Assembly (NCBI GenBank): GCA_934177485.1
Contig: CAKPPF010000005.1
Coordinates: forward strand, 11,241-75,240
Reading direction: 5' to 3'
Origin: an uncultured Clostridia bacterium
GTDB taxonomy: Bacteria; Bacillota; Clostridia; TANB77; CAG-508
DNA length: 64,000 bases
The position numbers and the translations under genes were made by a program. Below, piece after piece: positions 19,332-44,303 of this stretch (positions are counted from its first letter, which is position 1; every line of letters begins with the position of its first letter). The notes beneath the pieces were generated by a model. That model saw nothing but the letters and a program-made list of their open reading frames with translations. It had not been told where the DNA came from and searched no databases.

Positions 19332-22300
19332 TTATCTTTTGATTACAAATTTCTTAATTCCAAATATGCCTACCGCCAAGATGCATAATGATGCTAAACC
19401 AACTATGTAGTATGTTATTCCAATTGCTCCTCCATCACCTGTTGGTGGGTGAATTACTATTTCCTCTGATGTTGCTGTATCTCTACTTCCACCAGGTACA
19501 ATTATATGTCTGTCTGTTGTTCTTACTCTGTCTCTTAATGTGTCATCACCAGTGTTATTATAGTTTATTTCTTGTATTTCTATTGTGTTCATATATCCAA
19601 CAAACATATTTTGAATATCTTTCATTGTTATTCCAGAATCGTTAGAAGATAATACTCTTTCTAATACTAACTCTACTTCTTTCTTTTGGCCTGTTGTTGC
19701 ACTTAAGATTGGGTTATTAGGTGTAGTTTTAATGATAACTTTATATTTGTTTGAATCACTTGCTACCGTGCTCTGTGGCTCTAAGCTATCTCCATTTAAT
19801 TTTAACTTTTTATATTGTTCTTGCATCTCATCATAAGAAGTTAATTCCCAATATTTTGAATTTTCGCCTAATGTTTGGTTATACTCTAAGTTATTATCTA
19901 TAAAGTCATATAAACCTTTTATAGTTGGAGTTATACCTTCTTCATCATTATAGTTCTTTTCAACTTTTATTTCAGCTGAAATTGCATACGTAATACGTAA
20001 TTTAGCTCCTTGTAGTTTTTCATTCTCAATGCTTACGTCTATTGGCTCGTTAACTCCAGCTGCTAAAACCTCTCCGTTTACAACGTTATAATTGCCATCC
20101 TCTTTTAGAACAATTTTTGCTATTGTATTTATACCTGCAGAATCTACTATTTCAAGTTCTTTCACATGTTTTTGCAAGTCAATTGTTGATACTGGAACTT
20201 CTGCAATACCAAAGTTCATATTAGTAATTACATAATCAGTAAATGTCTTGTTTTCAGTACTATTACTATTTATAGATGCTTTTTCAACATCAAACTTCAT
20301 AGCTTTAGTGTTTGCATACATATATGTTCCATTTATCAATTCTCTAATGTCTTCTTCTTTAAATTTCTTTCCACTTCTTATATCATTTAGTGTATTCATA
20401 AAGCCATACTTATTATATATAAAATTACTTACGTCTATTCTTCTTGTAGATTCATCTGTAGCAGTTGAAACACCTATTTTTTCATTAGCTAGATACCAAT
20501 AGTTTTCTGTAGGTGATATACTGTATGCACCATAAGTTCCAGTATTATTTGTTGCTTGATAATCTTCACCATTAAATGATTTTTGGTTTATTCCATTACT
20601 ATATGTATTTAATATAACTGTATCAATTGTGTCACCATATTTGAAACGAATTACATAATTTCCTGGTAAGAAACCTTCAAAACTATAATATCCATTTTCG
20701 TTTGTTTTTGCTGTAAATCTAGTTTTTTGATCATTTCCAACTTGCTCTAATAGTTCAACTGTTGCTCCATAAACTTTTAGTTCATCAGTGTCCATTATAC
20801 CATTACCAGTTCTTACATTTCCAATTTCTAAATGTGTTGCATCTTCAAATACATTTCCTTCAATTTTTCTCATATTTCCATCTTTTACAAAGTATAATAC
20901 TGGAGCAGTAAATGTATCGTCTTCGAATTTAAATCTGTTTAAGTTTTGTGCATTAAAATAATATTGTACAGTTGAAATATTACCTATTTGACCATTTGTT
21001 AATCTAACGTTTTCAATTTCTGCACTACCTGGTGCTGAGTCTACATCTATTAAGCCTCTTGTATATTCTGATTGACCTTCTGCACATTCAGATTTATATT
21101 CATAAATTTCTGCCATGTTATATGTTGGTAATTTTTCTCCCATATTCAAATCTTTTAATAAGTCTACTGGATTATTTAAAACAAGTGTTACATATATGTT
21201 TCTAGATTCTCCTGGATTTAATGTTCTAGTATCGTCTACATTTATAATTAATTCCTTGTAGTTTCCTTTATTAGTAATATTGCCATTTCCACCCACAATT
21301 GTGACTAGGTTATATCTACTATCAAAGTAATTTACAATTTTTGTTGCAGTTCCTTTTGTTATTGAACTTTCATTTGTTACTGTTATTTTATATATAACTT
21401 TTATGCCTAATCTTGTTTCATCATAATGCGTATTAGTTATATCAGTTGCTCTAATTTTCTGATCTACACTAGTATATCTTGTTGTTCTAATTTCATTATG
21501 TATATGTGCAGCATCTGGATATATATCCTCTCTTCTAACATTAACTTCATTTGCATAATTATATGTTCCAGTTTGTCCATTTACAGTTACATATACTGAA
21601 GATACATCAGAAGTTAATTCTAAGTCTAAAGTATCTCTTCCTCTTAGACCTAAATTTACATGTTGTAAATATGTTTCGTCTGTTTTGCTTGAGTAAGCTC
21701 CAATATTAATTTTTTCTGTTGAAGATTTTATTGACATACTTCCACTATCATATACATATCTTGATTGTGGTAAATTGTCTGCTTCGTTTATTGTCTCATA
21801 AGTAATATCTTTAGTATTATCAATTGTTGAAAAACGGTCATTTAGGTCTTTTCTATCTGTTTTTCCTTCTTCTGCATTTGAATATTGAGTAGTAGCATAT
21901 TGACTTTCTATGCTGTTTTCCTTTATATTCCAAATTCTTTTTTCATTACTAAATGTAGAAGTATATTTAATTCCATCATATTCAAATTTTACTATATATG
22001 AATAATATCCACTTTTTATATCCCATTTATTATTATCTTCCTGAATTTTTGCTTTAATATATCTTTCTTTAGGATTTGTTATAACATTAGGATCTAAACT
22101 TGAATTTTTAAAACAATAATATCCATTTGAATCTGTCGTTGTTTGTGCAACTGCCGTTTCTACGCCATCTCTATATAAGTAAACCTGTATACCTTCAAGT
22201 AATTTATCTTTATTATCTCCCTTATCATATTGGCCGTTATAGTTTGATGATTTTTTATCAAATGCAACATCATTCCATACAATACCTGCGATAATTGCAT

Positions 22301-25300
22301 CTTCTGTTACTTCTTCATTTATAATTGCCCAACTTTTTTCAGAAAGTTTGTATGTACTTACTGATATTCCAGCTATTGAAGTTGTTTCTGCAACAGTATA
22401 TTTATATTCTATGCCATACTCATCGTATTTTTGTAAATTTGTCCATTTGTGTATCCAATTTTCACCTTCGCTTAATGTTACCACATTTCCACATGCATTA
22501 CCATTTCGATATAATTGTACTTGTATTGCTTTTATTAAACTTTTGTTATCTACGTTCCAGCTTTTTATTACAGAAATTTCTGTTTTATTATATGTATTTA
22601 CAATAACATCATATGCAGTGCTAGAATCGTATCTTACCATATAATTACCATTTGTTGTAAAGTCTGCTATTGGGTTATCGTTTTGGTCTAATTCTTTAGC
22701 AGTATAGTTAATTTCAATTCCATTGTCATCGTATTTTAGTAGGTTATCCCATGTATAAATTTGCATATCAGAATTTTCTGTAGAAATTTCTTGTGTCCTA
22801 ATTAATTCATTATTAGCATATAACCCTACTTTTATTGTTCTTGGTCTTTGTGCAGTTTGGTTTTCGTCGCCCTTCCATTCTTTAATAACTGTTTTGCTTA
22901 CATATTCATTTTTATATGTATTATTAACAATGAAACTTATACTATTGCTTCCTTCGTCGCATTCTATAACTGCTTCGTATCCATTTGGTACTTCCACTTC
23001 TTCTACTGTATATTCAATTTTATTTTTTTCTTCATCATATTTAAGTAGGTTTTCCCATGAATGTTTCCACGAATTAGATGCATTTAATTCTTTTTCTTCA
23101 TATAGCTTATCATCTTGGTATAGTTTTACCTTTATACTAGCTGGTCTTGCACTAGTACTGAAGTCTTTCCATACTTTTTGAACTAATACATTTATCTTTT
23201 CTGAGTCTGGAGTATCTTTAGTATTAGTAATTGTCCATTCATTTTCTGATGTACTTTCTATTTTAGTTATAAAGTTTCCTGTTGTCTTTTCTTCTATTTC
23301 ATATTTTGCGTTTTTGATTAAATTAGTCCAAGTATATGTCCAGTTATTATCAGCATTTAATTTAACTGTTTCAATTTCTGTTCCGTCTTTTTTTAAAGCC
23401 ACCTCTATATCGCCTATTGTTTTAATTTCATTATCTGTAAATCCTTCCCATACTTTCTTTACAGTTTTGCTTATATAATCTGGCACATTGTATTCATTAA
23501 CAATTATTATGTTTGTACAATTGTTATTTCTATCATATTCTATTGATGATTTATATCCTTCTGGTACACTTACTTCTTTTACTGTATATTCAATTTCATT
23601 TTTGTTTCCATCATATTTAGGTAGGTTTGTCCATGAATGTTTCCACAAATTAGATTCATTTAATACTATTACATCTCCATATTGATTACCATCTTTGTAT
23701 AGTTTTACCTTTATGCTATCTGGTCTTTTTCCATATAGATTATTCGAATCATTCCATACCTTTTTAACAGATACTTGTGTGTTTTCTTCTATTTTTTTAG
23801 TATTTGTAATTTTCCATACATTAGTAGATATTTCATCTATTCTAGAAGTAAATTTAGATATGTTTGATATTTCTTCTACTGTATAATTAATTTTATTTCC
23901 GTTTTTATTAAGTTTCTCTAGATCATTCCATATATATGTCCAATTATTTGAACTATTTAATGTAGCTTCTTTAATTTTTGTTCCGTCTTTCTTTAATGCT
24001 ACCTTTATCTCGCCTATTGTTTCAATTTCATTATCTGTAAATCCTTCCCATACTTTAAATACTTTAACAGACAATGGTTGTTGTTCTGGATTCATTTTAA
24101 AGTAGTCGCTATCTGTATTATTATATGGAGTGGAGTCCATTACATATTTATTATTTTTATTATTTATATGTTTTATCTCTGCTGTATTTTTATATGTATC
24201 AATTGATAAGTTAGGTGCATCAGTTCTAATTGTTATTTCAATGTCACAATGTTCACCACTATTAAGGCTTATTTTATCAGTCGTATTTATAATCTCAATA
24301 TTATTTTGAGTATTCGTTTCATCAAAAAATGAGTTAAACGTATTACTACGGGTTTGTTCACCAGCTTTATTATAATAAGTTATTTTGTCCACTTTATATT
24401 TATAATATTCGGTTAAATCATTAGGTAAAAGATCTTCTACAGAAACGAATTTAACAAATGTGTCTCCATCATTATTTAATCTTACTAAATATGTAATTTT
24501 ACTTCCGCAATCTGCACTTACAACATTTGTATTTTTATACATGTTTTTATTTGGTGTATATCCCTCTTTGTACTCTTCTTCGTTGTACATGTGTTCTGCA
24601 CGGTTACATCTATCATCATGGCTAGTTGTATGATTTTTAGATGTAACAACTTGTTTTATGTATTTTTCTAAGCTAACTTTATATTCTTTTAATTTAACAT
24701 GATCTTCATCTTGGTTATTATCTGTTCCATCCCAATCTAATACCGTACGATTTTTTTCGTTTTTTATCTCTCTTATTTTAGCTTTATTATAATAATCTGG
24801 TTTTTTATACCTAGGGTCCCCATCTATTGTATATTTAATTGTAATGTCCTTCCATTCTTTACCTACAAGTTCTATAGGTGGATTAAGTGTTATTATTTCA
24901 TGTGGATCACCATTTTCTGTTGGAGTAGTATAGCTTCCAACATTTTCTTTCAAGTATTCCTCATCAATGGTTAATTCACTTGAGTGCCAGTCATCAATTT
25001 GTGTAATTTTTACTTTGTTTGTTCCAGTATTCATCAATCTTATTGTAAATGTTATTTTGTCTAAATATTCTACCGGAACAGGATTATCCAATTTATATGT
25101 ATTAAAGTTTTCACTACTTGGATTAGATGCATTTATTAAATCATAATTATATCTCTTACTATTTCTTCCTTCTACCTTTTGACTTCCATCTAAGCTTTCA
25201 ACATTTGTTACAAATTTTTCTAGACTGACAGAGTATCTTCTTAGTATAGCATAGTCGCCGTCATAAGTTCTATATTCTGTTCTGTTAACCGGATTAGTAT

Positions 25301-26546
25301 TATTGTTTTGAAGTCCTACCTCATTTCCAAGGAACTTATCACCGTTTCCAGTATAATTATATTTTAGTCTAACATAAATTGTTCTTTTCTTTATCGTTCT
25401 AGTTAATGTTCTGCATCTAATATAAATCTTTTTGCCATCACTATACCAACGTGCAGCCATGTCCAATTTTTTGCTTGTATCTTCGTCATATGTCCTACCT
25501 GATTCCCATATTTCTTGTACATTAAAAGAAGCTGAAGGTGCATCAGTCAAAATTATATTTTTTGCCTTTGTCTCAGAATTATTATATAGCTCTATTGCAT
25601 ATACTACTTCATCTCCATCAATAATCTCTACCGGATTATCCCATTTGTACCCTTTGTTCCATATATTTTCATTGCCTGAACTTGGATTTTTTATAATGCT
25701 TGGAGACCAATAGCCATAATTTTTATTTCCAATCCAATAATTATGTGAGTCTAATTCCCTTCCATCTGTTGGAAGTGGTTTTAATACCATATTTTTTCTA
25801 TCTGTTCCTAAATCATCAACCGTACCATCTTTATGTATAATTTGTGTGATATATTTTTGTAGAGAAATGTTAGCACTTATTACTGGCCACGTTATTTCTG
25901 TTTCATATCTATATTTTGTAGATTTTCCAACAAGCATTGATTGATTACCTTGCTTTGTATACTCATATGCCTCGCCATCATAAAGCCAATAATCATAGAT
26001 TACTGTTAATTTTGTTCCAGCTGAATATGTGCTCGGATCAAGCTCAATAGAGCCTCCATTTTTTATTACTTGATTACTTAAACCGGGAATTATTACTTGT
26101 GGACATCCTTGCTTACAAGAAAATGCAATACATACCTTATTATTATTTACACTGACAGTAATTTCATCATCTGTATGTGAATGGCTCGCATAATTAGCAT
26201 AGTCTATTGCTCTATAATAAATCGATTTACCATTTACATATCCAAAAGTACCATATTCTTCACTCGTGCAATGATCTTTTACATTTTCTTCATTATTCTG
26301 TGTTAACCATATAGCGACATTTGTAGGTTTTCTCTTTGCGCTATTTGTTTTAGTTATATCATCTACGTTATTTAAACTACTATTTTCCTGTCCAATTATG
26401 TATTTTATTACATTAACTTTATATGAGTCATTTAATTTTTCATAGTAATTATCACCGTCTAATATATGTTCCTGTACTAGCACCTTTATACATATCATTA
26501 CAAAACACACCATTTTTATAATGATATGTGCTCTTAGAATAAGCAT
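19332..26546 (-). CDS. Giant cell-surface adhesin (2,404-aa frame) with multiple Cna-B-type/SpaA-fold repeats and a C-terminal sorting-signal-like segment (HPPTG + TM + KKFVIKR)
   Basis: Repeated KVWEGFTDNEI...NNWTY(I/T)W(N/T)DL...Y(T/E)VEE modules match the Cna-B domain. The frame is open upstream of the first ATG and joins the signal-peptide ORF 26452..26700 through a +1 frameshift. Confidence 0.8.
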   Translation of the reverse strand: MLILRAHIIIKMVCFVMICIKVLVQEHILDGDNYYEKLNDSYKVNVIKYIIGQENSSLNNVDDITKTNSAKRKPTNVAIWLTQNNEENVKDHCTSEEYGTFGYVNGKSIYYRAIDYANYASHSHTDDEITVSVNNNKVCIAFSCKQGCPQVIIPGLSNQVIKNGGSIELDPSTYSAGTKLTVIYDYWLYDGEAYEYTKQGNQSMLVGKSTKYRYETEITWPVISANISLQKYITQIIHKDGTVDDLGTDRKNMVLKPLPTDGRELDSHNYWIGNKNYGYWSPSIIKNPSSGNENIWNKGYKWDNPVEIIDGDEVVYAIELYNNSETKAKNIILTDAPSASFNVQEIWESGRTYDEDTSKKLDMAARWYSDGKKIYIRCRTLTRTIKKRTIYVRLKYNYTGNGDKFLGNEVGLQNNNTNPVNRTEYRTYDGDYAILRRYSVSLEKFVTNVESLDGSQKVEGRNSKRYNYDLINASNPSSENFNTYKLDNPVPVEYLDKITFTIRLMNTGTNKVKITQIDDWHSSELTIDEEYLKENVGSYTTPTENGDPHEIITLNPPIELVGKEWKDITIKYTIDGDPRYKKPDYYNKAKIREIKNEKNRTVLDWDGTDNNQDEDHVKLKEYKVSLEKYIKQVVTSKNHTTSHDDRCNRAEHMYNEEEYKEGYTPNKNMYKNTNVVSADCGSKITYLVRLNNDGDTFVKFVSVEDLLPNDLTEYYKYKVDKITYYNKAGEQTRSNTFNSFFDETNTQNNIEIINTTDKISLNSGEHCDIEITIRTDAPNLSIDTYKNTAEIKHINNKNNKYVMDSTPYNNTDSDYFKMNPEQQPLSVKVFKVWEGFTDNEIETIGEIKVALKKDGTKIKEATLNSSNNWTYIWNDLEKLNKNGNKINYTVEEISNISKFTSRIDEISTNVWKITNTKKIEENTQVSVKKVWNDSNNLYGKRPDSIKVKLYKDGNQYGDVIVLNESNLWKHSWTNLPKYDGNKNEIEYTVKEVSVPEGYKSSIEYDRNNNCTNIIIVNEYNVPDYISKTVKKVWEGFTDNEIKTIGDIEVALKKDGTEIETVKLNADNNWTYTWTNLIKNAKYEIEEKTTGNFITKIESTSENEWTITNTKDTPDSEKINVLVQKVWKDFSTSARPASIKVKLYQDDKLYEEKELNASNSWKHSWENLLKYDEEKNKIEYTVEEVEVPNGYEAVIECDEGSNSISFIVNNTYKNEYVSKTVIKEWKGDENQTAQRPRTIKVGLYANNELIRTQEISTENSDMQIYTWDNLLKYDDNGIEINYTAKELDQNDNPIADFTTNGNYMVRYDSSTAYDVIVNTYNKTEISVIKSWNVDNKSLIKAIQVQLYRNGNACGNVVTLSEGENWIHKWTNLQKYDEYGIEYKYTVAETTSIAGISVSTYKLSEKSWAIINEEVTEDAIIAGIVWNDVAFDKKSSNYNGQYDKGDNKDKLLEGIQVYLYRDGVETAVAQTTTDSNGYYCFKNSSLDPNVITNPKERYIKAKIQEDNNKWDIKSGYYSYIVKFEYDGIKYTSTFSNEKRIWNIKENSIESQYATTQYSNAEEGKTDRKDLNDRFSTIDNTKDITYETINEADNLPQSRYVYDSGSMSIKSSTEKINIGAYSSKTDETYLQHVNLGLRGRDTLDLELTSDVSSVYVTVNGQTGTYNYANEVNVRREDIYPDAAHIHNEIRTTRYTSVDQKIRATDITNTHYDETRLGIKVIYKITVTNESSITKGTATKIVNYFDSRYNLVTIVGGNGNITNKGNYKELIINVDDTRTLNPGESRNIYVTLVLNNPVDLLKDLNMGEKLPTYNMAEIYEYKSECAEGQSEYTRGLIDVDSAPGSAEIENVRLTNGQIGNISTVQYYFNAQNLNRFKFEDDTFTAPVLYFVKDGNMRKIEGNVFEDATHLEIGNVRTGNGIMDTDELKVYGATVELLEQVGNDQKTRFTAKTNENGYYSFEGFLPGNYVIRFKYGDTIDTVILNTYSNGINQKSFNGEDYQATNNTGTYGAYSISPTENYWYLANEKIGVSTATDESTRRIDVSNFIYNKYGFMNTLNDIRSGKKFKEEDIRELINGTYMYANTKAMKFDVEKASINSNSTENKTFTDYVITNMNFGIAEVPVSTIDLQKHVKELEIVDSAGINTIAKIVLKEDGNYNVVNGEVLAAGVNEPIDVSIENEKLQGAKLRITYAISAEIKVEKNYNDEEGITPTIKGLYDFIDNNLEYNQTLGENSKYWELTSYDEMQEQYKKLKLNGDSLEPQSTVASDSNKYKVIIKTTPNNPILSATTGQKKEVELVLERVLSSNDSGITMKDIQNMFVGYMNTIEIQEINYNNTGDDTLRDRVRTTDRHIIVPGGSRDTATSEEIVIHPPTGDGGAIGITYYIVGLASLCILAVGIFGIKKFVIKR

Positions 26547-26723: not shown

Positions 26724-29700
26724 TTATATATTTACACTTAAAACTTTTTTCTTTATTATATAAGCCCCTGTTGCAAATGTTGTTATACAACATAAAGTTA
26801 TACCTAAATATAGCCATGCTGAGCCTGTTTTAATTGAAATTGCAAGTATAGCAGAAGAATTATTATTTTCTTGTGCTTGCATATTTTCTTGCACATTTGC
26901 TAAATTACTTATCTTTGTTAAGCTTGCATTGTTTGTAAATATACCTGCATTATCTTCCGTCATTGTTTTTGTTAATACAAGTTCAACTTCTTTTGTTTCG
27001 TTTGGATTTATTGCTACTTTAGAAAGTGCAGATGTATATAGTTTTCCATCTGTTCCTTTATACCAATCCTTATTTAGGTCTGAGCTGAACTCTAGTCCGC
27101 TTGGTAAATCATCTTGTAAACTATCAACAAAACCTGCAACATCTCCCTCGTTTGTAACTGCAAATTTATATGTAACTATTACATTAGTTCCTTTCATATA
27201 TTTTGCTTTAATATCTATTTTTGCAACATCGTCTGTTGGTTTATATTCTTCTGTTTGTGTTCCTTCTTTATTAATTATAGATATTTTAGAAATATATTTA
27301 TTTAAACTTAAATCAAATTTTGCATTTTCCAATAATCCTATATTTATATTTACTTTACTTTCAGTTAGTGCTATTTCGTCTGTAACTGCTGCTGTTTTTA
27401 AATTACCATTTATTCTAACTTGTGTTAAAATTACATCTGAGTTTATGCTTTCATCTACACCAGCCCTTTTGTATGTTGTAACTGTGAATGTATTAGTGTC
27501 AAATTCGAATAGCACTATATAATTTCCTTTTGGAATATTTGTAAACTCATATTTACCATTATTATTAGTTGTTGTGGTTATTTTATTTCCATTTGCATCT
27601 AATGCAAAGTTTCCTGTATCTTTATTAACCAAAGTTACCACTACGCTATGTTGTAAAGCTTCTTCATCATCCTTTTTACCATTTTTATTTGAATCTACCC
27701 ATGCTATTCCAGAAATGCTATATGTTTCTTTTTCAGGTGTTGTTGATTCTTCTGGTTTTGTTGATTGTTCTGGATTTTCAGGTGTTGTTGGTTCTTCTGG
27801 TTTTGTTGGCTGTTCTGGATTTTCAGGCGTTGTTGGTTCTTCTGGGTTTGTTGGTTGTTCTGGATTTTCTGGTGTTATTGGTTCTTCTGGGTCTTCTATT
27901 TTTTTAGGCTCATATTTTATATTAAAAACTACCTCATTAGATTCAATTTCAACTAAACCAACTGATAATTTCACCTTATTCTTTATAGCAATTGTTTCCT
28001 CTTGTTCAACTTCTTTTTCTTTTATAGTTCCTGTAATAATAGCTGTAAATTTTTCTCCTGATTTTAAATTTTCTGTTAAGTTAATTGGTGTTTTCGGTGT
28101 ATATATTAATTTATCTTTTCCATATTCTACCTTTTGAACATTTATATTATCAGAAATTTCATCTAAAAGTATAAATTCACAGCTAGTTTCTCCTATATTT
28201 TCCACCGTTATTTTATATTCTATATTATCTCCAGCTTTTTTAGTTTCATCTTGCACATTTGAGGTTAAATTTACAGCAAAATATGCTTGCGAAATTTTTG
28301 TATATTTATTATTAGATTCATAAACATCATTTTCTTTACCTATTGTTACATTTGCAATAGTGTTTAGTTTAGCTGAATATCCATCTACCAATTTTATTAC
28401 TTTAGCATTTATAACTACTTCTGTTTCTTCGTTTGGTTGTAATTTTTTAATTGTATATTCAAAGGCGTTATTGTTGCATATACCATTGTCTGTTATTTCG
28501 TATTTTCCATTCCACTTTGCTAAACCTCCATTAATAAACTCAACTTCTTTTGGAATGTTATAGCTAATTTTTAAATCATTTAAATTATTAGTTGTTATGT
28601 TTTTAACATATATATGGTATTCAACATTATCTCCAATATTGTATGTGTTTTCATATATACTTGTCTGTTCAATATCCGTTGGTAATTTTAAGTTTACCTC
28701 AATTTTCGCTGGTTTTAATACTAAAGTGTTTTTTATTGGCTCATTATTTTCTACTTGCACAGTATTTATTATGTTTCCTTCTATAGCTGTGTTTGCCATT
28801 TTTAAAGATATTTCAAATTCTTTAACTTCATTTGCCTTTATTTCTTCAATTTTCCATAACATTTCTTTAATTGTCGTATCTTCAACATTTTTAAAATAAT
28901 AATCTTCAGCTTCTTCTATTTTTTTTCTGTACACATATATTGCATTTTCTGGTATTATATCTTTTACTGTTATATTATTTAAAGTTTTATCTGATTTATT
29001 TTCTACCTTTATAGTGTAGTTTACTATTTGATTTGAATGTACATAGTTTTGTGTTATTTGAGGTATTATTGTAACTTCTAATGGTATTGAATTTTGCTCA
29101 TTTTCATTTAATTCATTTTTTGTTTTATTTTTTCCAATATCGTTTTCTGGTGTTTGTAAACCAAGTATCATTTCTTTCTGTTCGTAATTATTATTTATGT
29201 TATATGTCATGCCTAATTTTAAAAAGCATTTTTCGTTGTAGTCCATTTGTTCTGGTATTTGTACATATTCTTTTATTATTATTGTTTGTTTTGCAAGTAA
29301 TGTATTATTATTTAGTTCTACTTTATATGCTTTTGCATTTTTAGTAAAATCTGTTGTCCAAGTGTTATCGTTTACATCACTATTTTCATTTTCTGAGTAA
29401 TATACTTTTGCATTTTCAACTTCTACAGGTTTTGTTAATTTTGTAATAAAAGTTGAGTTTTTATTTTCTGTATTTGTTCCTAATCTTTCTATAATAACAA
29501 CATTTGTTAAATCTTCCTCATTGTTATTAACAAGTACAATATTTCTTGTAGCTTCATATGTATCAGCATTATTTTTTATTTCTACTGTTTTGTTTTCCAT
29601 TGTTATTTCTTGCGTGTTATTTCCATCAAAATTATTTAATGTAGATAAAATTAATACGCCTTCTTTTGATACTATATTAACATCACATGATGCTTCTATT

Positions 29701-31334
29701 TGTTCTTCACCTTGCACACATGTTGCAACTATTTTGTCTTTTCTAGAAGCCAGGGTATTTCTATATTGTAAATCTTCTAGGTTTAAAACTATACTTGTTC
29801 CACCAGAAATATTTTCTAAGTCATACTCTGTTTGTTTTCCTTCTAATTCTATGTATATAACATTATTTCCTTGTGTTTTTACGCTTTTTATTTCTAGCCC
29901 ATTTCCGTTTAAAATTTCTGAATGTGATACGTTTCCATAAGCAATTCCTTCTGGTAATGTAATTTTTATTGTTGGAGCATTAAATAATTTAGCTGATGGA
30001 TTTGTATCGTCTAATTTTACTATTACGTTTGAGTTTGTTTTTTGTAATGTTGTAAAGTTTGGCTCGTTTGTTTCTACAGATATTTTTGTTCTTGCCTCGT
30101 TTAACATTATTGTTTGTTTTGCAAGTATTTCGTTAACACTATTTGTTATTTCAAGTTTTTCTATATTTTCTACATTTGTTCCATAATTAGCGTTGTTTAA
30201 AATTGTAGCTTGATTTTCAAAATGCATATTTCCTTCTGCTATTGGTTTTGTTGTTTTTATTTTTAAAGCAGTTAAATTTTGTTTGTATTCTATTACAATA
30301 CTTTCTTTACCATCTTCTATTTGAGAATGGCTTCCATCTATGTATGTAACAGAAAGTTTATTGTTATTTTCTATATTTAGATAGCTAACAGTTGCAATTA
30401 CTTCTTCGTTTTGGTAAATTTCTATTTTACCGTTTTCGCCTAAAATTCTATCAAATTCATTTTTGCTTATTCCTGTTGCAGAATAAACAACATTTCCATT
30501 TGAAGAAATTTTTTCGTTTGACTTTAATAAAAGTTCTGCTTCGTTTGTTTGCATTATTATTTCATCTACGGCATTTGAATTTAACACATTTAGTGTAGAT
30601 ATTGTTTTAAAATCTGTATTATATTTTGTACCGTTTTCAACATTTGAGTACATAAAGCCTTTGTATATTTTATCTTGTATGTCTGTTGTGTTATATGATA
30701 AAATGTCGCCTTTATTTTCTGTTTCTGTTGTTTTTATTGTTTTAGCTGTTTCTGAAGTTAGTACCCCACTTTCTGCTTTGTATTGTATGCTTGCACTTAT
30801 GTTGTATGTTAAATTAACTTCCTCCATATTTTCTGTAACAGCTTCTGCTGAGTATATATATATAATTTCTAATTCATCTTTTGAATCTTGAACAAATTTT
30901 GTGTATTCATTTTCATTTGCGTATGACAAAGTTAATAAACCAGAAGTTTTATCGTAGTTCTGATTTATTTTTACATTTTCTTTTTCACCTGTTGTTTGCA
31001 TTGTTTTTGCAAGTACAACATTTGCTCTTTCTGGGAAATGTGAATTAACTTCTGGAAGTTTAATTTGCACTTCTACAGAAGTTGTTGGTAAATATGTTTC
31101 TTCACTTTGTTTGGAATTAACACTTACTTTTGTTTGAACAGCAAGCCCTGTATAGTTTTGAGTTTGTGTTTTAACAAATTTTGTATTCTCTGCATTTAGT
31201 TCAATTTCTGGTAGCATAGCATTTTCTGCAATTGCATTTGCAATTCCAACACCACAAATAGAAACATTTCCAAACACAATTGATATTGCCATAAATGTTG
31301 CTATAGTTTTTGTTAAAATGTTTTTCAAGTTCAT
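26724..31334 (-). CDS. Large surface adhesin (1,536 aa) with a signal peptide, Pro-rich PEEPTTPENPEQPTK repeats, an SdrD-B/Cna-B-like domain and a C-terminal sorting-signal-like tail (SIKTG + TM + KKK)
   Basis: AGGAGG RBS. Signal peptide MNLKNILTKTIATFMAISIVFGNVSICG. Domain GIAWVDSNKNGKKDDEE...GNYIVLFEF. Confidence 0.82.
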   Translation of the reverse strand: MNLKNILTKTIATFMAISIVFGNVSICGVGIANAIAENAMLPEIELNAENTKFVKTQTQNYTGLAVQTKVSVNSKQSEETYLPTTSVEVQIKLPEVNSHFPERANVVLAKTMQTTGEKENVKINQNYDKTSGLLTLSYANENEYTKFVQDSKDELEIIYIYSAEAVTENMEEVNLTYNISASIQYKAESGVLTSETAKTIKTTETENKGDILSYNTTDIQDKIYKGFMYSNVENGTKYNTDFKTISTLNVLNSNAVDEIIMQTNEAELLLKSNEKISSNGNVVYSATGISKNEFDRILGENGKIEIYQNEEVIATVSYLNIENNNKLSVTYIDGSHSQIEDGKESIVIEYKQNLTALKIKTTKPIAEGNMHFENQATILNNANYGTNVENIEKLEITNSVNEILAKQTIMLNEARTKISVETNEPNFTTLQKTNSNVIVKLDDTNPSAKLFNAPTIKITLPEGIAYGNVSHSEILNGNGLEIKSVKTQGNNVIYIELEGKQTEYDLENISGGTSIVLNLEDLQYRNTLASRKDKIVATCVQGEEQIEASCDVNIVSKEGVLILSTLNNFDGNNTQEITMENKTVEIKNNADTYEATRNIVLVNNNEEDLTNVVIIERLGTNTENKNSTFITKLTKPVEVENAKVYYSENENSDVNDNTWTTDFTKNAKAYKVELNNNTLLAKQTIIIKEYVQIPEQMDYNEKCFLKLGMTYNINNNYEQKEMILGLQTPENDIGKNKTKNELNENEQNSIPLEVTIIPQITQNYVHSNQIVNYTIKVENKSDKTLNNITVKDIIPENAIYVYRKKIEEAEDYYFKNVEDTTIKEMLWKIEEIKANEVKEFEISLKMANTAIEGNIINTVQVENNEPIKNTLVLKPAKIEVNLKLPTDIEQTSIYENTYNIGDNVEYHIYVKNITTNNLNDLKISYNIPKEVEFINGGLAKWNGKYEITDNGICNNNAFEYTIKKLQPNEETEVVINAKVIKLVDGYSAKLNTIANVTIGKENDVYESNNKYTKISQAYFAVNLTSNVQDETKKAGDNIEYKITVENIGETSCEFILLDEISDNINVQKVEYGKDKLIYTPKTPINLTENLKSGEKFTAIITGTIKEKEVEQEETIAIKNKVKLSVGLVEIESNEVVFNIKYEPKKIEDPEEPITPENPEQPTNPEEPTTPENPEQPTKPEEPTTPENPEQSTKPEESTTPEKETYSISGIAWVDSNKNGKKDDEEALQHSVVVTLVNKDTGNFALDANGNKITTTTNNNGKYEFTNIPKGNYIVLFEFDTNTFTVTTYKRAGVDESINSDVILTQVRINGNLKTAAVTDEIALTESKVNINIGLLENAKFDLSLNKYISKISIINKEGTQTEEYKPTDDVAKIDIKAKYMKGTNVIVTYKFAVTNEGDVAGFVDSLQDDLPSGLEFSSDLNKDWYKGTDGKLYTSALSKVAINPNETKEVELVLTKTMTEDNAGIFTNNASLTKISNLANVQENMQAQENNNSSAILAISIKTGSAWLYLGITLCCITTFATGAYIIKKKVLSVNI
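27720..27900. repeat. Three tandem ~60-bp in-frame repeats encoding the Pro/Glu/Thr-rich linker of the 1,536-aa adhesin
   Basis: ttctggttttgttgg(c/t)tgttctggattttc(a/t)gg(c/t)gttgttggttc is repeated 3 times. Confidence 0.7.
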
Positions 31335-31665
31335 TAAAATTTCCTCCTTAGAAATTAATAATTATTATATATTATATATAAATTATATATTATGTACACT
31401 ATTATTTTTATTATACAACATTTTTTTCATAAAATCTAGACTTTTCTAGCAAAATCTCTCTTTATTTATATAAAAAAACAGATATTTTTCAACAAAATAT
31501 CTGCTTTTATTATACGGATATACACATTTAGTAAATTGCCTAATATTAATATTAAGTTTTTGTTACAATTTTTAAGCAAAAGATGCAACATTTAGCGTTT
31601 TCCTTAGGGAATCAAAAATATAGAGTGAAGGTTTTAAATTTATATTTATTACTAAATTCTGTTTT

Positions 31666-31693
31666 GAGCAGGCATAAAACCTGCCCCCCTACA
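31666..31693. repeat. Module-A repeat, copy 4
   Basis: gagcaggcataaaacctgcccccctaca + T6. Confidence 0.75.
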
Positions 31694-32560: not shown

Positions 32561-32620
32561 ATTTGTTTTTCCTTTCTAAAATTAAAATTTATATGACAAA
32601 TATAATTGTAATCAATTTAT

Positions 32621-32724
32621 TTTTGAGAGCATTTTTTCAAAATTAGACCCTCCAGGCTAGCGGGTATTCCCCGCCTCAAAGGGCTGTCAGGCCGTAATTT
32701 TTCAAAAAAGTCTCAAAACAGATT
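32621..32724 (+). mobile_element. MITE-like ~100-bp element with ~20-bp terminal inverted repeats and a GC-rich core, copy 1
   Basis: ttttgagagcattttttcaaaatta | gaccctccaggctagcgggtattccccgcctcaaagggctgtcaggccg | taatttttcaaaaaagtctcaaaa. Confidence 0.55.
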
Positions 32725-32949
32725 GATATATAGTAGCGCGAAGCTATTGGTTTTTATTTTTTTAGAAAGTTACGGGTGGGGACCGGCGAGTTTATAGAAT
32801 GTTTAAAATTTATTAAAATAAATTTTATTACATTCTATACGAAGTTGGGGCGTTTCGTAAAAAATAAAAACAAATAGCTGGGAGCGGATTAATTTTGCAA
32901 ATTACAATTTACATTATATCATATTTTTTTATTATATAGGAAAAAATCG

Positions 32950-33020
32950 AAGATTTTTACGTATATATCAAGGTTAAGTTACCTTAGGCAGTGCATATTT
33001 GCGAAACCACTTTTCCTATT
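32950..33020. repeat. Module-E-like repeat (also at 3476-3546 and 8448-8520)
   Basis: caaggttaagttaccttaggcagtgcatatttgcgaaaccacttttcc is related to the rc of 8448-8520 and to 3476-3546 (caaggttaagttacatttatgtaatacatatttaagaagcaaaataaccatatggcgaagc). Confidence 0.55.
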
Positions 33021-35313: not shown

Positions 35314-35336
35314 ATAAAGCAAAATACTGATTTTTC

Positions 35337-35382
35337 GGGCAGGCGGTGTAGGGGTAGGTCTTGTGCCTACCATTCCTGCCCC
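35337..35382. repeat. Module-A repeat, long variant, copy 5 (doubles as a terminator after the PBP gene)
   Basis: gggcaggcggtgtaggggtaggtcttgtgcctaccattcctgcccc + acaattttttt. Confidence 0.75.
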
Positions 35383-35410
35383 ACAATTTTTTATGCAAGA
35401 AAGGATTAGA

Positions 35411-38122: not shown

Positions 38123-38449
38123 TTAAATTAATAATAGTCTAGCTGCATGCCAAACTCTTTGAATTATAATAAAATTAGATCTAATTTCATATATTATTCT
38201 ATATTGTTTAAAAATAATTTCACGTATATTTTTGTTATTATATTCTAAAACTTTTCTTCCCATATATGGCATAACAGTTAAGTTTGTAGTAATTTTTACT
38301 ATTTTATTAATTGTTTTTAAAGAATAATAAATTGAATCTCTTGAAATATAATTATAGATTGAATATAAATCTGCCTTAGCATTTTTTGACCATATTACTT
38401 TTACCAAATATTTCTTCCAGTACTTCCTCTGTAGTATAGTATTCCGCAA
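38123..38449 (-). CDS. ParE/RelE-superfamily toxin, copy 1
   Basis: YRIIYEIRSNFIIIQRVWHAAR C-terminal signature. Overlaps the upstream antitoxin ORF. Confidence 0.65.
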   Translation of the reverse strand: MRNTILQRKYWKKYLVKVIWSKNAKADLYSIYNYISRDSIYYSLKTINKIVKITTNLTVMPYMGRKVLEYNNKNIREIIFKQYRIIYEIRSNFIIIQRVWHAARLLLI

Positions 38450-38591
38450 TACCGTTTTCTTCCTCTTTATGTTGTAATTCTATTGAGGCTATAATTATAT
38501 CTGATTCAGCTAAATTAGGATTATCGATTATTTTCTGTAATTCTTTTATTGTTTTGCTTCTGTAATATAAAATTTTTTCTTCATTGCTCAT
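38376..38591 (-). CDS. Putative antitoxin, copy 1 (71 aa)
   Basis: MSNEEKILYYRSKTIKELQKII.... AAAGGAG RBS. Immediately upstream of and overlapping the ParE-like toxin. Confidence 0.55.
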   Translation of the reverse strand: MSNEEKILYYRSKTIKELQKIIDNPNLAESDIIIASIELQHKEEENGIAEYYTTEEVLEEIFGKSNMVKKC

Positions 38592-38641
38592 AACATCAGC
38601 TCCTTTTGAATGGCATTTAATAATTTAATACCTTTTAAAGT

Positions 38642-38669
38642 ATTATATATTATTTTTTCTATTTGTCAA
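38642..38669 (-). promoter_or_regulatory. Consensus sigma-A promoter (TTGACA-16/17-TATAAT) driving TA cassette 1
   Basis: Minus-strand reading: TTGACAaatagaaaaaataataTATAAT. Confidence 0.55.
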
Positions 38670-38775
38670 TATTGGCTTAGTACTAAGTTAAAAAGATTAA
38701 ACAGATACACGACATATTACCTACATTTTGTAATATTTAAAGGTATTAAATTATTTTTAAAATTGGGATTTATTT

Positions 38776-39102
38776 TTAAATTAAATTTTTAGAAATTAAT
38801 CTTCTAGAATGAAATATTCTTTGAATGTAAATAAAACTTTCTTTTATTTGGTATATAATTCGATAAGATTTATAAATCAACTCACGAATATATTCTTCAT
38901 TATACTCTGGTACTTTCCTGCCCATATAGGGCAACAAATCCAAGCCTAATATTTTTTCTCCAATATTTTCTTTTGTTTTTACAGCATAATATATAGAATT
39001 TAATTTTATGTATTCAAATATTTGTTGAATATCAATGTTGGCATCATCTGAAATTATAATAATACTGTTCTTATCCAAATACTTCCTCGAATGTATGTAC
39101 AT
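38776..39102 (-). CDS. ParE/RelE-superfamily toxin, copy 2
   Basis: YRIIYQIKESFIYIQRIFHSRR. Paralogous to 38123..38449. Confidence 0.65.
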   Translation of the reverse strand: MYIHSRKYLDKNSIIIISDDANIDIQQIFEYIKLNSIYYAVKTKENIGEKILGLDLLPYMGRKVPEYNEEYIRELIYKSYRIIYQIKESFIYIQRIFHSRRLISKNLI

Positions 39103-39244
39103 TTCCTAATTCATAGTTTTTGTTACCTAGTTCAATTGATGCTATAATTATATCTGATTCATCAATAGTCTCATCTCTAATTATTTTTCTCAGTTCTTTT
39201 ACTGTTTTGCTTCTGTAATATAAAATTTTTTCTTCATTGCTCAT
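39071..39244 (-). CDS. Putative antitoxin, copy 2 (57 aa; below the ORF-track cutoff)
   Basis: Manual translation gives MSNEEKILYYRSKTVKELRKIIRDETIDESDIIIASIELGNKNYELGNVHTFEEVFG. Same RBS and promoter as copy 1. Overlaps the toxin start by 32 nt. Confidence 0.55.
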   Translation of the reverse strand: MSNEEKILYYRSKTVKELRKIIRDETIDESDIIIASIELGNKNYELGNVHTFEEVFG

Positions 39245-39294
39245 GACATCAGCTCCATTTGAATGGCATTTAATAATTTAATACCTTTTAAAGT

Positions 39295-39322
39295 ATTATA
39301 TATTATTTTTTCTATTTGTCAA
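39295..39322 (-). promoter_or_regulatory. Duplicate of the TA promoter (TTGACA-N16/17-TATAAT) driving cassette 2
   Basis: Sequence is identical to 38592-38690 over ~90 bp. Confidence 0.55.
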
Positions 39323-39352
39323 TATTGGTTTTAGTATTAGGACAAAAAATTA

Positions 39353-39399
39353 GGCAGACATGTATAGGTAGGTCTTGTGCCTCCCATTTTCGCCCTACA
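39353..39399. repeat. Module-A repeat, degenerate long variant, copy 6, fused to modules E and C (39405-39528)
   Basis: ggcagacatgtataggtaggtcttgtgcctcccattttcgccctaca. Confidence 0.65.
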
Positions 39400-39535
39400 A
39401 TACATAAGAAAAGTGGCTTCGCCACACTTTTCTTATCGCCGATTTGAGTTTCCGAATAAAATGAGAAAATCTCAAAGGCAACAGCGATTATAGCATTTTT
39501 GTTGAATAGAAAAATCTTTGATTTTCCTATTCAAC

Positions 39536-39581: not shown

Positions 39582-40784
39582 TTAAGCAATTATTTCTGAA
39601 ACTATACCAGAACCAACTGTTCTTCCACCTTCACGTATAGCGAATCTTAATCCTTTTTCTATAGCAATTGGTGTGATTAATTCGATAGTCATTGAAATAT
39701 TATCTCCTGGCATTACCATTTCTGTTCCTGCAGGTAATTCAATAACACCTGTAACGTCTGTTGTTCTGAAGTAGAATTGTGGTCTGTATCCATTGAAGAA
39801 TGGTGTATGTCTTCCACCTTCTTCTTTGGTTAATACATAAACTTCTGCTTTGAATTTTGTGTGTGGATGTATTGTTCCTGGTTTTGCTAAAACTTGACCT
39901 CTTTCGATGTCTTTTCTATCAACACCTCTTAATAGAACACCTATGTTGTCTCCTGCTTCTGCTTGATCTAATAATTTTCTGAACATTTCAACACCTGTAA
40001 CAACTGTTTTTGAAGCTTCTGATTTTAATCCAACCATTTCAACTTCATCACCAACTTTTACAACACCTCTTTCAACTCTACCTGTTGCAACTGTTCCTCT
40101 ACCAGTAATTGTGAATACGTCTTCAACTGGCATTAAGAATGGTTCGTCAACTGGTCTAGATGGTGTTGGTATATAACTATCAACAGCGTCCATTAATTCT
40201 TTCATGCATGCATATTCTGGAGCATTTGGATCTGTAGATGTACTTTCTAGTACTTTTAATGAAGATCCTTTTATAACTGGTATTTCATCTCCTGGGAAAT
40301 CATAGCTTGATAATAAGTCTCTAACTTCCATTTCAACTAAGTCTAATAGTTCAGGATCGTCAACCATATCACATTTATTTAAGTAAACAACTATATATTT
40401 AACACCAACTTGTCTAGCAAGTAATATATGCTCTCTTGTTTGAGGCATTGGTCCATCAGCTGCTGAAACAACTAATATAGCACCATCCATTTGAGCAGCA
40501 CCTGTAATCATGTTTTTAACGTAGTCAGCATGTCCTGGGCAGTCAACGTGTGCATAGTGTCTGTTTTCTGTTTCATATTCAACGTGAGCTGTATTAATTG
40601 TGATTCCTCTTGCTTTTTCTTCTGGAGCTCCGTCGATTTGATCGTAAGCTTCATATTTAGCTTTTCCTAATAATGATAAATATTTTGTAATAGCGGCTGT
40701 TGTTGTTGTTTTTCCATGATCTACGTGACCGATTGTACCGATATTAACATGTGGTTTTGTTCTTTCAAATTTAGCTTTTGCCAT
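39582..40784 (-). CDS. tuf: Elongation factor Tu
   Basis: [17 protein letters not shown] and NKCD motifs. 400 aa. Confidence 0.97.
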
Positions 40785-40948: not shown

Positions 40949-43033
40949 CTAGTCCTCTTTTTTAGTTCTAGAAGCAACAATAGCTTCAAATACTGATTTT
41001 GGAACTTCTTCATAATGAGATGGTTCCATAGAATATGTTCCTCTACCTTGTGTTTTTGAACGTAAGTCTGTAGCATAACCAAACATTTCTGATAATGGCA
41101 CAAATGCTCTTATCTCTGATGTTCCGTCAACTGTTTCCATTCCTTCCATTCTACCACGTCTTGAGTTTACATCTCCTATAACATCTCCCATGTATTCTTC
41201 TGGAACTGTTATTTCAACTTTCATTATTGGTTCTAGAATAACAGCTTTTGCTTTTCTACATCCTTCTTTGAAAGCCATAGATCCAGCAATTTTGAAGGCC
41301 ATTTCTGATGAGTCAACATCATGGTAAGAACCATCAACTAATGTTGCTTTGAAGTCGATAACCGGGTATCCAGCAAGTACTCCGGCTTCTGCAGCTTCTC
41401 TAACTCCTTCTTCAACTGGTTTGATGTATTCTTTTGGAACAACACCACCAACTATTTTGCTTTCAAATTCTATTCCTGAACCTGGTTTTAATGGTTCCAT
41501 TTCTAACCAAACGTGTCCGTATTGTCCACGTCCACCAGATTGACGTATGAATTTTCCTTCAACTCTAACTGCTTCTTTAATTGTTTCTTTGTAGGCAACT
41601 TGTGGTTTACCTACATTACATTCAACTTTGAATTCTCTTTTTAATCTGTCAACAATTATATCTAGGTGTAATTCACCCATACCAGCTATAATTGTTTGAC
41701 CAGTTTCTTGGTTTGTATAAGCTTTGAAAGTTGGATCTTCTTCAGCAAGCTTTGCTAAAGCTATACCCATTTTTTCTTGAGCTGCTTTGTCTTTTGGCTC
41801 AATTGCTATATCAATAACTGGTTCAGGGAATTCCATTGATTCTAGAATTATTGGATGGTTAGGATCACATAATGTATTTCCTGTTGTAACCTCTTTTAAT
41901 CCAACTGCAGCTGCTATATCACCAGCATAAACTTTGTCTATGTCTTCTCTGTGGTTAGCATGCATTTGAAGAATTCTTCCTATTCTTTCTTTTTTATCTT
42001 TGCTTGAATTTAAAACTGTTGAACCAGACTCTAATGTTCCAGAGTAAACTCTAAAGAAACATAATTTTCCAACGAATGGGTCTGTAGCAATTTTAAATGC
42101 TAATGCAGCAAATGGTTCTGAATCAGAAGTTTTAGCTTCTGTTTCTTTTCCGTCTAATGTTTCACCTTTAATATGTGGTATATCTAATGGTGATGGCATA
42201 TAATCAACTATGTTGTTTAATAACTCTTGAACACCTTTATTTTTGTATGAAGAACCACAACATACTGGAACTATTTTATTTGCTATTGTTCCAATTCTTA
42301 AGCCTTTTTTAATTTCAGCTTCTGTTAATTCTTCTCCTTCTAGGTATTTCATCATTAATTCTTCATCTTGATCACATGCTGCTTCTATCATGGCAGCTCT
42401 ATATTCTTCTGCCATAGATTTCATATCTTCTGGTATATCTGTTTCTTCAATTACTTTTCCTAAATCATCTTTATGGATGAATGCTCTCATTTTAATTAAA
42501 TCAACTATACCTTGGAAGTTATCTTCAGCTCCTATTGGTAATTGGATTGGAACTGCGTTTGCTTTTAATCTGTTTTTTAATTGGTCAACGCAAAGCATAA
42601 AGTTAGCTCCTGTTATATCCATTTTGTTTACATATACCATTCTTGGAACTTGATATTTATCAGCTTGTCTCCAAACTGTTTCTGTTTGTGGTTGAACTCC
42701 ACCTTTTGCAGCTAAAACTGTAACGGCACCATCAAGAACTTTTAAAGATCTTTGAACTTCAACTGTAAAGTCAACGTGTCCTGGGGTATCGATAATATTT
42801 ATTCTATTACCATTCCAGAAACATGTTGTAGCAGCAGAAGTAATTGTTATACCTCTTTCTTGCTCTTGTTCCATCCAGTCCATTGTAGCTGCGCCTTCGT
42901 GAACTTCACCTATTTTGTGAGTTTTACCTGTATAGAATAGTATTCTTTCTGTTGTTGTAGTTTTTCCTGCATCTATATGTGCAACTATTCCTATATTTCT
43001 TGTTTTTTCTAACGAATAAGCTCTTTCAGCCAC
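40949..43033 (-). CDS. fusA: Elongation factor G
   Basis: [15 protein letters not shown]. 694 aa. Confidence 0.97.
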
Positions 43034-44254: not shown

Positions 44255-44283
44255 GAGTTTTCCTACGGAATTATAAGGAAAGT

Positions 44284-44303
44284 GGCAGGTACAAGACCTG
44301 CCC
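44284..44303. repeat. Module-A repeat, copy 7
   Basis: ggcaggtacaagacctgccc + ttttaattgttttt, between gatB and rpsL. Confidence 0.8.

Follow-up and report, generated by a model that had tools for sequence, protein, structure and literature searches.

A probable family of palindromic extragenic DNA repeats with a conserved tip in uncultured Oscillospirales-type Clostridia

Two inverted sequences of about 100 nucleotides (nt) in contig CAKPPF010000005.1 of an uncultured Clostridia bacterium raise the question of whether they are copies of a mobile DNA element or of a structured RNA. The stretch of this contig that was analyzed (the window) comprises 64,000 nt (64 kb), and all coordinates of copy 1 and copy 2 refer to it. 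A previous inspection made without database searches (here called the sequence-only reading) had offered both possibilities, a transposable element of the miniature inverted-repeat type (MITE) or a small structured RNA. The first of these stands in part: the copies belong to a multicopy, noncoding, intergenic inverted repeat with a conserved center, but no target-site duplication (TSD) or insertion sequence (IS) was found to go with it at the boundaries and in the reading frames examined, and the RNA option is disfavored. Both copies are probably members of a family, in uncultured Oscillospirales-type Clostridia, of palindromic DNA repeats that are extragenic and non-autonomous and have a foldback, REPIN-like, or MITE-like character. 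Hairpin repeats of this family have not been described before. They are most likely a small mobile element, parasitic or domesticated, and not a regulatory RNA.

RESULTS

Both copies in the window are single long hairpins

The two copies are present, in inverted orientation, at 32621-32724 and 52891-52990. The plus strand of copy 1 and the reverse complement of copy 2 show a column identity of ~84% across ~100 nt, far above chance. Three sub-patterns of 20 to 24 nt gave exactly two matches each in the window, namely, the two copies, against a shuffle expectation of 0.00 to 0.01. A scan of the window with the covariance model described below, with filters off, likewise returned the two copies only (scores are given in Table 1); the next match scored 22 bits. 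Both copies fold as one long hairpin each, whether as RNA (z scores of -2.0 to -5.2) or as DNA (z scores of -4.5 for copy 1 and -3.9 for copy 2).

Copy 1 lies between the divergent genes for a KsgA/RsmA-type rRNA dimethylase and a PBP, and copy 2 lies between the tandem genes for RNase III (rnc) and a cohesin/LPXTG protein, as the sequence-only reading had it. The hairpin of copy 1 was correctly located, but it is slightly longer than first drawn (Table 1), with outer pairs TCAAT/ATTGA and main arms at 32621-32645 and 32695-32718. The C-strand of its tip is on the plus strand. In copy 2, the C-strand is on the minus strand, and this hairpin was found upstream of rnc in every strain examined. 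A scan of the window for tRNA and tmRNA genes found none.

Other parts of the initial description had to be revised. The proposed A/T-rich terminal inverted repeats around a GC-rich core are indeed A/T-rich inverted arms around a GC-rich center, but they form a variable hairpin stem and are not conserved transposase-binding ends. Both copies had been placed beside another repeat (module A); copy 2 does abut such a palindrome (GGGCAGG...CCTGCCC, 53012-53043), but the one nearest to copy 1 is ~930 nt away. The compensatory changes claimed for a stem within the core (AUGCC/GGCAU in one copy, GCC/GGC in the other) did not hold up, because the 5' side of that stem, GCC in GCCTCAAAGGG, does not vary among 42 copies and there is no covariation to be seen. 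A competing core pairing, CCC/GGG plus CAG/CUG, was also rejected: its sole doubly changed pair was 39-89 (C-G to U-A, in four copies), and it was broken in 6 to 7 copies.

Further copies occur in human-gut and termite-gut Clostridia

An exact-pattern scan covered 185,579 species genomes, and metagenomes were scanned likewise. As had been predicted for a repeat of this kind, further copies were found in other genomic contexts, both in Clostridia contigs and in a termite-gut metagenome-assembled genome (MAG). The species-genome scan gave three true sources: a contig of a Hadza-gut "Clostridia bacterium" MAG (L020), a contig of another Clostridia MAG (L024), and the single termite-gut Oscillospiraceae MAG WRFS01, for which at least 21 copies were counted. 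The metagenome matches listed contributed two human-gut sources, L046 and L093, together with L050 and many contigs from termite gut. Among the matches listed, members were located only in the human-gut Clostridia lineage of the window, in two other Clostridia contigs, and in the termite-gut Oscillospiraceae MAG. High-GC matches of the pattern scans were coding or chance matches and were discarded. A pattern scan of viral contigs produced two matches only, both of them chance matches in coding sequence, and a blastn search of plasmid and phage collections found no copy of the family.

After removal of duplicates, 42 distinct full copies were aligned, and a covariance model was built from them. 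On the termite loci, this model detected many further, more divergent copies, and an independent palindrome search of 128 kb, comprising 16 termite loci, found ~38 hairpins with a tip, a density that is inflated because the loci were picked for containing at least one copy. In all, the window has two copies, related contigs have at least three more, and the loci of the termite MAG have dozens. The elements are 100 to 240 nt long, noncoding, multicopy, and A/T-rich, and all lie between open reading frames (ORFs), in agreement with the size and copy number expected of prokaryotic MITEs (PMC10969869). They adjoin unrelated housekeeping genes in both orientations, with no consistent gene association; in the termite MAG, they are found between genes such as infB/rbfA, truB, ruvX, and dprA.

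A family member was present in many of the sampled intergenic spacers of the termite MAG, a density that is unusually high for a bacterial genome. The 8-kb locus L015 of this MAG, for example, has five tip-bearing hairpins, at 225-335, 4144-4253, 5646-5755, 6568-6676, and 6751-6858.

Neither the window nor any of 10 related loci had a match to Rfam (15) at gathering score, and permissive Rfam scans, which included both intergenic regions and one termite element, gave generic microRNA-hairpin noise only. Identity to a known riboswitch or noncoding RNA family, which would have spoken against a new element, was thus not found.

A near-invariant tip is carried on a drifting stem

Every member is a near-perfect palindrome of 100 to 240 nt, with arms of 22 to 36 bp or more and a nonpalindromic center of 45 to 55 nt. 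The center, or tip (~45 nt), consists, in this order, of C(C/T)TCCA(G/A)G (CCTCCARG), a cassette of ~20 nt, and GCCTCAAAGGGCTGTCG. The two boxes are essentially invariant in the 42 aligned copies. The cassette comes in few types, namely, A (GGTCAAGGGGTAATCCGTAT), B (AGCCTCCGAAGACTCCATGG), the type of copy 1 (GGCTAGCGGGTATTCCCC), and some others; that of copy 1 is also found in L020, L046, and L050, in the last of these with a compensated change in the stem. The same arms can carry a different cassette, type A or B (L015, 6751-6858, versus L126, 379-486), and one hairpin had no tip at all (L008, 1865-1910). Runs of oligo-T and oligo-A border the tip in all lineages, though the arms differ. These tracts are inverted in the termite copies and form a 10-nt direct repeat (TTTTTCAAAA) in the window subfamily only. 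A housekeeping protein common to the window organism and the termite MAG is only ~60% identical, versus a near-identical tip.

The inverted repeat spans nearly the whole copy. Its sequence differs between copies and between lineages, and Watson-Crick complementarity is kept throughout. Structural covariation, the check proposed at the outset, was strong in the arms, where 20 of 26 pairs were doubly changed. The alignment contained 166 compensated cells, compared with 44.6 in shuffles (none of 500 shuffles reached 166), and arm pairing, at 90.6%, dropped to 44 to 54% once the partners were slid as a control. Transversions (G-C to U-A or to A-U) made up many of the arm swaps, and G-U states on one side only were rare. 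In the termite elements the base, too, is conserved and asymmetric: one flank has TCCGCTYCC and the opposite flank TCRCGCTAY(TCTAC). Relative to the tip, TCCGC lies to the left and GCTAY to the right in nearly all of the 42 termite copies, a fixed polarity.

The fold energy of the tip alone was ordinary (z scores of -0.1 to -2.8), several variants folding no better than shuffles, and a distinctive fold of the isolated tip was thereby ruled out. Its helices, of 3+3 bp, are irregular, short, and interrupted by internal loops. Of the two tip strands (for example, at 32648-32656 and 52955-52963), one contains CCUCC, the core of the anti-Shine-Dalgarno sequence, and the other contains GGAGG. Since the tip lacks a conserved downstream start codon, no peptide is implied; Shine-Dalgarno or anti-Shine-Dalgarno mimicry by the tip at the RNA level is conceivable.

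A tip of this kind raises the possibility, which we consider rather unlikely, that CCTCCARG and GCCTCAAAGGGCTGTCG around the exchangeable ~20-nt cassette form a dedicated recognition module of an undescribed hairpin-specific Oscillospirales system, presented at the end of a long stem whose base is conserved and polar. That system could be a new structure-guided mobilization or recombination enzyme unrelated to RAYTs, or RNase III-type processing that frees cassette-bearing small RNAs. If so, the swapping of cassettes, as well as conservation in lineages from human and from termite guts alike, would reflect function and not mere selfish copying.

The window hairpins are parts of larger units, elements turn over at orthologous sites, and one unit occurs in both orientations

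The family of dispersed repeats is best seen in its larger units. The ~100-bp segments first described are repeated, but the true units extend from 32587 to ~32911 for copy 1 and from 52876 to 53040 for copy 2 (Table 1). L020 shares with the window only 32586-32911 (327 nt, 97% identity), in another genomic context, and L046 has the copy 1 unit minus its middle module (32738-32871). The copy 1 unit (325 nt) is made up of the tip-bearing hairpin, a nested long hairpin that we call module 2, and a short base, and its terminal repeat, (GT)AATTT/AAATT(AC), is 5 to 7 bp only. Module 2, which is missing from L046, has a TAG(C) direct repeat on its flanks. Its base on the minus strand, TCCGCTCCC...TCGCGCTAC, is the base of the termite elements, with a different tip, and in the window it is preceded by TATAGTAG. 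The copy 2 unit includes a palindrome of a separate GC-rich family, for which the repeat search found at least nine copies in the window.

A short GTAG-like foot recurs beside several of these structures. The terminal sequence of the termite elements is ...GCTAYTCTAC, so that the opposite strand has GTAG 5' of the hairpin, and the small palindromes of the window read GTAGGGGCAGG.... Each of the two window hairpins that bear a tip also has GTAG 2 to 12 nt away, but the strand on which it lies relative to the tip differs between the two copies.

Orthologous spacers were compared in two contig pairs from two termite-gut metagenomes (L017/L118 and L122/L126). The genes in these pairs are 86 to 94% identical, and the hairpin elements are different. 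The family is dispersed, with fast turnover at orthologous sites, and is nested with other hairpin modules. Separately, L122 (807-1195) and L126 (3914-3975) differ by a ~330-nt indel between otherwise orthologous contigs, which does not belong to the hairpin family.

At ksgA, the junction with the left end of the unit (CATATAAATT joined to TTAATTTTAG) is found in the window, L153, L154, and L158, and L153 departs from the window directly past the right boundary of the unit. In three independent assemblies (L155 to L157), the junction is flipped, and the ksgA-proximal sequence is joined to the right end of the unit (TTGCAAATT joined to TTAATTTTTAG, with AAATT next to TTAATTTT). KsgA is 100% identical in all seven sources despite the opposite orientations of the unit. 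The 325-nt unit has thus been flipped or reinserted in place. Both orientations lack the terminal AC (AC/GT) seen at other loci, which favors inversion in place. Inversion via a longer imperfect repeat, AATTGTAAT/ATTACAATT, was ruled out, as the breakpoint is at AATTT/AAATT. Because the contigs end inside the repeat, no far junction could be recovered for the flipped form; contigs from the PBP side end 124 nt upstream of the PBP gene, inside repeats. Public assemblies of the same species (L155 to L158 and L164 to L170) also have contig ends inside repeat units, 36 to 340 nt from ksgA, rnc, and PBP. Contigs repeatedly start or end in these units, which therefore are systematic assembly breakpoints for this organism.

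The ksgA/PBP unit might instead be an inverton, flipped by a site-specific recombinase so as to switch the orientation of a promoter or terminator, with the hairpin as part of the switch. This is doubtful as a full explanation. It fits with the presence of both orientations at one junction next to an identical KsgA (one junction of the flipped form was seen), with the terminal inverted repeat at the breakpoints, with the absence of the terminal AC/GT on the ksgA side in both variants, and with outward-facing -35-like hexamers at the right end of the unit. However, the copy 1 unit is also found at other loci with other neighbors (L020 and L046) and is therefore a dispersed repeat, not a locus-specific switch. 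In addition, no recombinase was found among 20 window ORFs scanned, copy 2 has a single orientation in all strains, and one junction of the inverted form was not recovered. An inverton is compatible with a dispersed repeat family and is not exclusive of it.

The ksgA-PBP spacer as a whole is a mosaic of repeat modules almost throughout.

Table 1. Coordinates of the hairpin elements, their tips, and the units that contain them (window numbering)
Feature	Coordinates	Strand	Basis
Composite unit holding copy 1, ends (GT)AATTT...AAATT(AC)	32587-32911		Boundaries, paralogues, orientation polymorphism
Copy 1 hairpin, long and imperfect	32612-32726		Sequence, alignment with copy 2, folds (z -4.5), covariance model (63.7 bits)
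Copy 1 tip ("core"): CCCTCCAGG, cassette CTAGCGGGTATTCCCC, then GCCTCAAAGGGCTGTCAGGCC	32648-32693	+	Boxes invariant in 42 distinct members
Module 2, nested second long hairpin	32734-32874		Indel versus L046; DNA fold -32.2 kcal/mol, z -8.0
Copy 2 unit: hairpin, linker, and REP-like palindrome	52876-53040		L093, 95% identity over 165 nt, flanks unrelated
Copy 2 long hairpin, CATTTTGAAAC...GTTCTCAAAATG	52889-52992		Sequence, folds (z -5.2 RNA, -3.9 DNA), covariance model (82.7 bits)
Copy 2 tip	52917-52963	-	45/48 positions as in the consensus tip of the termite-gut Oscillospiraceae family; arms unalignable
GC-rich palindrome GGGGCAGGTCTTGTGCCTGCCC, GTAG before it (minus strand)	53012-53043	-	Separate multicopy family, repeat search

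Strand, orthologue, and signal tests argue against an RNA function

A structured RNA family, either a small RNA gene or a cis-regulatory leader, would account for a long stem that presents a conserved apex to a protein or to another RNA; the CCUCC box on one strand, for example, could pair with GGAGG sites. The strong covariation of the stem and the invariance of the tip across lineages are in keeping with this. The G-strand also folds slightly better in 30 of 42 copies, with an average gap of 2.2 kcal/mol and a symmetric GA/GA internal loop, and copies between co-directional genes (n = 23) show a mild excess of the G-strand sense, 15 presenting one strand to the mRNA and 8 presenting the other. 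That bias is not significant (P = 0.21), however, and both orientations occur. Predicted G-U pairs were symmetric, with 182 versus 184 on the two strands of the 42 copies, and the rarity of one-sided G-U intermediates, the ordinary stability of the isolated tip, the inconsistent gene association, and the lack of an Rfam match all argue in the same direction. We therefore regard an RNA family as improbable.

The rnc locus bears on the same point. In the rnc spacer of five strains with an identical RNase III protein, the hairpin was always kept, and the tip had 4 to 5 variable sites in 47 nt compared with 5 in 364 nt in the rest of the spacer (Fisher test, P = 0.012). A tip that is conserved family-wide but not at the individual locus is the signature of sequences needed for copying and the opposite of what would be expected of a cis-regulatory RNA. 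Promoter consensus scans found promoter-like sites to be no commoner than in shuffles; the best such site for rnc (TTTGCA-17-TATAAT, 52832-52804) lies between copy 2 and rnc and thus leaves the hairpin upstream of it.

We also observed that this long double-stranded RNA (dsRNA)-forming hairpin is just upstream of rnc (52104-52775, minus strand) in all strains examined, even in L163, where the upstream gene is different. The rnc gene of Escherichia coli is under autoregulation, in which a hairpin in the leader is cleaved. The link between hairpin and rnc is possibly coincidental here, because the best promoter-like site is downstream of the hairpin.

The elements could also be host-selected bidirectional terminator or insulator cassettes, in which the GC-rich tip hairpin with its A and T runs halts read-through both ways. 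Such repeats would have been spread by recombination since they are useful between genes, in the manner of SPRITE-type terminator-like repeats. All lineages do keep oligo-T and oligo-A directly beside the tip though the arms differ, and most copies fill spacers between tandem or convergent genes. One termite copy has a weak sub-hairpin, a small stem followed by AGTTTTTT, that was called terminator-like on the G-strand. Neither window copy was called in the scan for the intrinsic terminator consensus (a compact G+C-rich stem with a short loop, then a T run), however, and the tip helices are short and irregular. Some copies lie within usual operons (infB-rbfA) or in divergent promoter regions (copy 1). 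A terminator would also leave the 30-bp perfect outer arms, the asymmetric conserved base, and the invariant loop nucleotides unexplained, and this account, too, seems unlikely to us.

Chance similarity or assembly artifact, which has nothing in its favor but the low complexity of the A/T-rich arms, can be dismissed given a shuffle expectation of 0 to 0.01 and the recurrence of the elements in many independent assemblies and samples.

Comparison with known repeats and recombination sites

REPINs and REP elements are mobilized by RAYT (TnpA-REP) Y1 transposases (PMC3116915, PMC6006769), and like the present family they are extragenic, high-copy, noncoding palindromes that form a long hairpin in single-stranded DNA or RNA, with compensatory changes on both sides, no TSD, and a tendency to cluster and nest. 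A further likeness may be the short asymmetric foot by the stem, here CTAC/GTAG, which is located at the base in the termite elements, in module 2, and in other window palindromes. In REPINs, however, the ends are invariant and the tip spacer is the least conserved part, whereas the tip of the present family is the most conserved part and holds an exchangeable cassette. Its arms are also A/T-rich and much longer. The REPIN arrangement of two inverted conserved REPs around a less conserved spacer is thus reversed here, with a near-invariant tip between variable arms. In one survey, Clostridia are named only under subclass 1.1, the IS-transposase class, and the remaining subclasses are from other phyla (PMC6006769).

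The stem-loop MITEs Correia/NEMIS, ERIC, RUP, BOX, SPRITE, and bcr1 resemble the family in that they are <500 bp, A/T-rich, intergenic, and inserted into each other, and they form stable transcript stem-loops for which RNase III cleavage or terminator-like behavior is a likely side effect (PMC10969869). Prokaryotic MITEs are defined by terminal inverted repeats of ~4 to 30 bp that are conserved in the family, a TSD at least in young copies, and a related IS (PMC10969869). Here, no TSD was seen at the boundaries examined and no cognate IS among the ORFs tested, and the inverted repeat, which spans nearly the whole copy, is not conserved in sequence across the family. With neither a TSD nor a cognate IS found, unlike for a MITE, and with the pattern of conservation inverted relative to a REPIN, the family is therefore placed in neither group.

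Three other systems offer partial likenesses. The BIME-1 (RIP) elements of E. coli consist of a conserved central IHF-binding motif between two REPs in inverted orientation. Their plan of two inverted arms around a conserved nonpalindromic central motif may be analogous to that of the present family, but the sequences are unrelated, the tip has no recognized IHF-like consensus, and the arms are not REPs of a defined consensus. The invertible promoters (invertons) of gut bacteria also are short intergenic segments bounded by inverted repeats and found in both orientations in one species; unlike them, the segment described here is a dispersed repeat with a terminal repeat of 5 to 7 bp only, and no invertase was found among the window ORFs scanned. 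Integron attC sites have variable tips and conserved R and L boxes at the base. By analogy with the present hairpins, their stem structure outweighs sequence, and asymmetric bulges give the folded strand a polarity; unlike them, the present family has a conserved tip and no integron context.

DISCUSSION

A non-autonomous palindromic DNA repeat would explain a tip that is conserved across human-gut and termite-gut lineages yet unprotected at a single locus, as this is expected if only intact elements are copied. The folded single strand, or an extruded cruciform, would be copied by an enzyme supplied in trans. Candidates are a hairpin-specific HUH/Y1 enzyme (RAYT/IS200-like) or another structure-specific recombinase, and the base and/or the tip may be what it recognizes. 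Where the arms are transcribed through, they would form dsRNA that RNase III could cut; the enzyme cleaves dsRNA from 20 bp upward. With A and T runs on its flanks, the tip may in addition act as a weak bidirectional terminator. Both of these would be side effects, and not the reason why the family exists.

Several observations weigh against this interpretation. The trans-acting enzyme is one that we purely infer. The TSDs that the sequence-only reading had proposed to look for were not found at the boundaries of the window unit, L020, and L046, nor did any of the 42 termite copies inspected have one at its side; all boundaries examined lacked a TSD, and the sole flanking direct repeat is the TAG(C) around the nested module 2. 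The related IS fared no better, with no IS or transposase near the copies or among the window ORFs scanned. Pfam analysis of 30 ORFs revealed no transposase, RAYT, or recombinase in the tested window ORFs or adjoining the copies, all-against-all ORF clustering found no multicopy ORF in 490 kb of low-GC sequence, and a crude screen for the HUH...Y motif among ORFs in the 8- to 14-kb loci around matches gave nothing convincing. No clean pair of filled and empty sites was recovered. The tip is the most conserved part of the element, unlike in classic MITEs and REPINs, where conservation is highest at the ends and lowest in the center; such a tip would also fit a host-selected function. Its near-identity across lineages whose housekeeping proteins are ~60% identical could stem from horizontal transfer or from functional selection, and not only from competence for being copied. 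Finally, the excess of tip mutation at the rnc locus comprises five sites only and could partly be assembly error at hairpin tips.

If this interpretation is correct, the family is a Firmicutes/Oscillospirales counterpart to REPIN- and MITE-type repeats, for which the known cases come mainly from Proteobacteria and from a small number of pathogens. Its architecture, a modular conserved tip on a freely drifting stem, is unusual, and it makes the family a tractable case for asking what keeps the arms of a palindrome complementary amid sequence drift. Metagenome assemblies of the species break at these elements, in predictable places. The elements also mark breakpoints of rearrangement or inversion by the core genes ksgA, PBP, and rnc, and because of them many transcripts have a long dsRNA-forming hairpin within or close to them.

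Other repeats and genes in the window

The GC-rich palindromes (GGGCAGGYACAAGACCTGCCC) are located at 8285-8316, 10758-10789, 16233-16286, 31662-31693, 35334-35387, 39348-39401, 44279-44310, 53012-53043, and 62200-62253. They are mostly at gene ends, often with CTAC/GTAG adjoining, and resemble classical REP elements; they may double as terminators. Another palindrome family, TATATAGTAGGAAATTTC...GAAATTTCCTACTATATA, occurs at 7053-7085 and 8412-8446 and has the foot TATAGTAG in common with module 2. Further intergenic repeats are 32907-33005, which matches 8481-8577 in inverted orientation, and also 7102-7152, 8341-8423, 14758-14839, and 39429-39511.

A direct repeat of 231 nt with 84% identity (38475-38705 and 39128-39358) accompanies two tandem ORFs of 108 amino acids (aa) each (38123-38449 and 38776-39102). 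Downstream of these are ORFs of 400 and 694 aa (39582-40784 and 40949-43033). The window also contains three giant ORFs with internal repeats, at 19332-26546 (2,404 aa), 26724-31334 (1,536 aa), and 54026-62020 (2,664 aa). In related contigs, Pfam assigned CLIPPER/SdrD_B and dockerin/Big_12 domains to their orthologues, and a small cohesin/LPXTG protein adjoins them. This domain content suggests that the giant ORFs encode cell-surface adhesins or cellulosome-like machinery.

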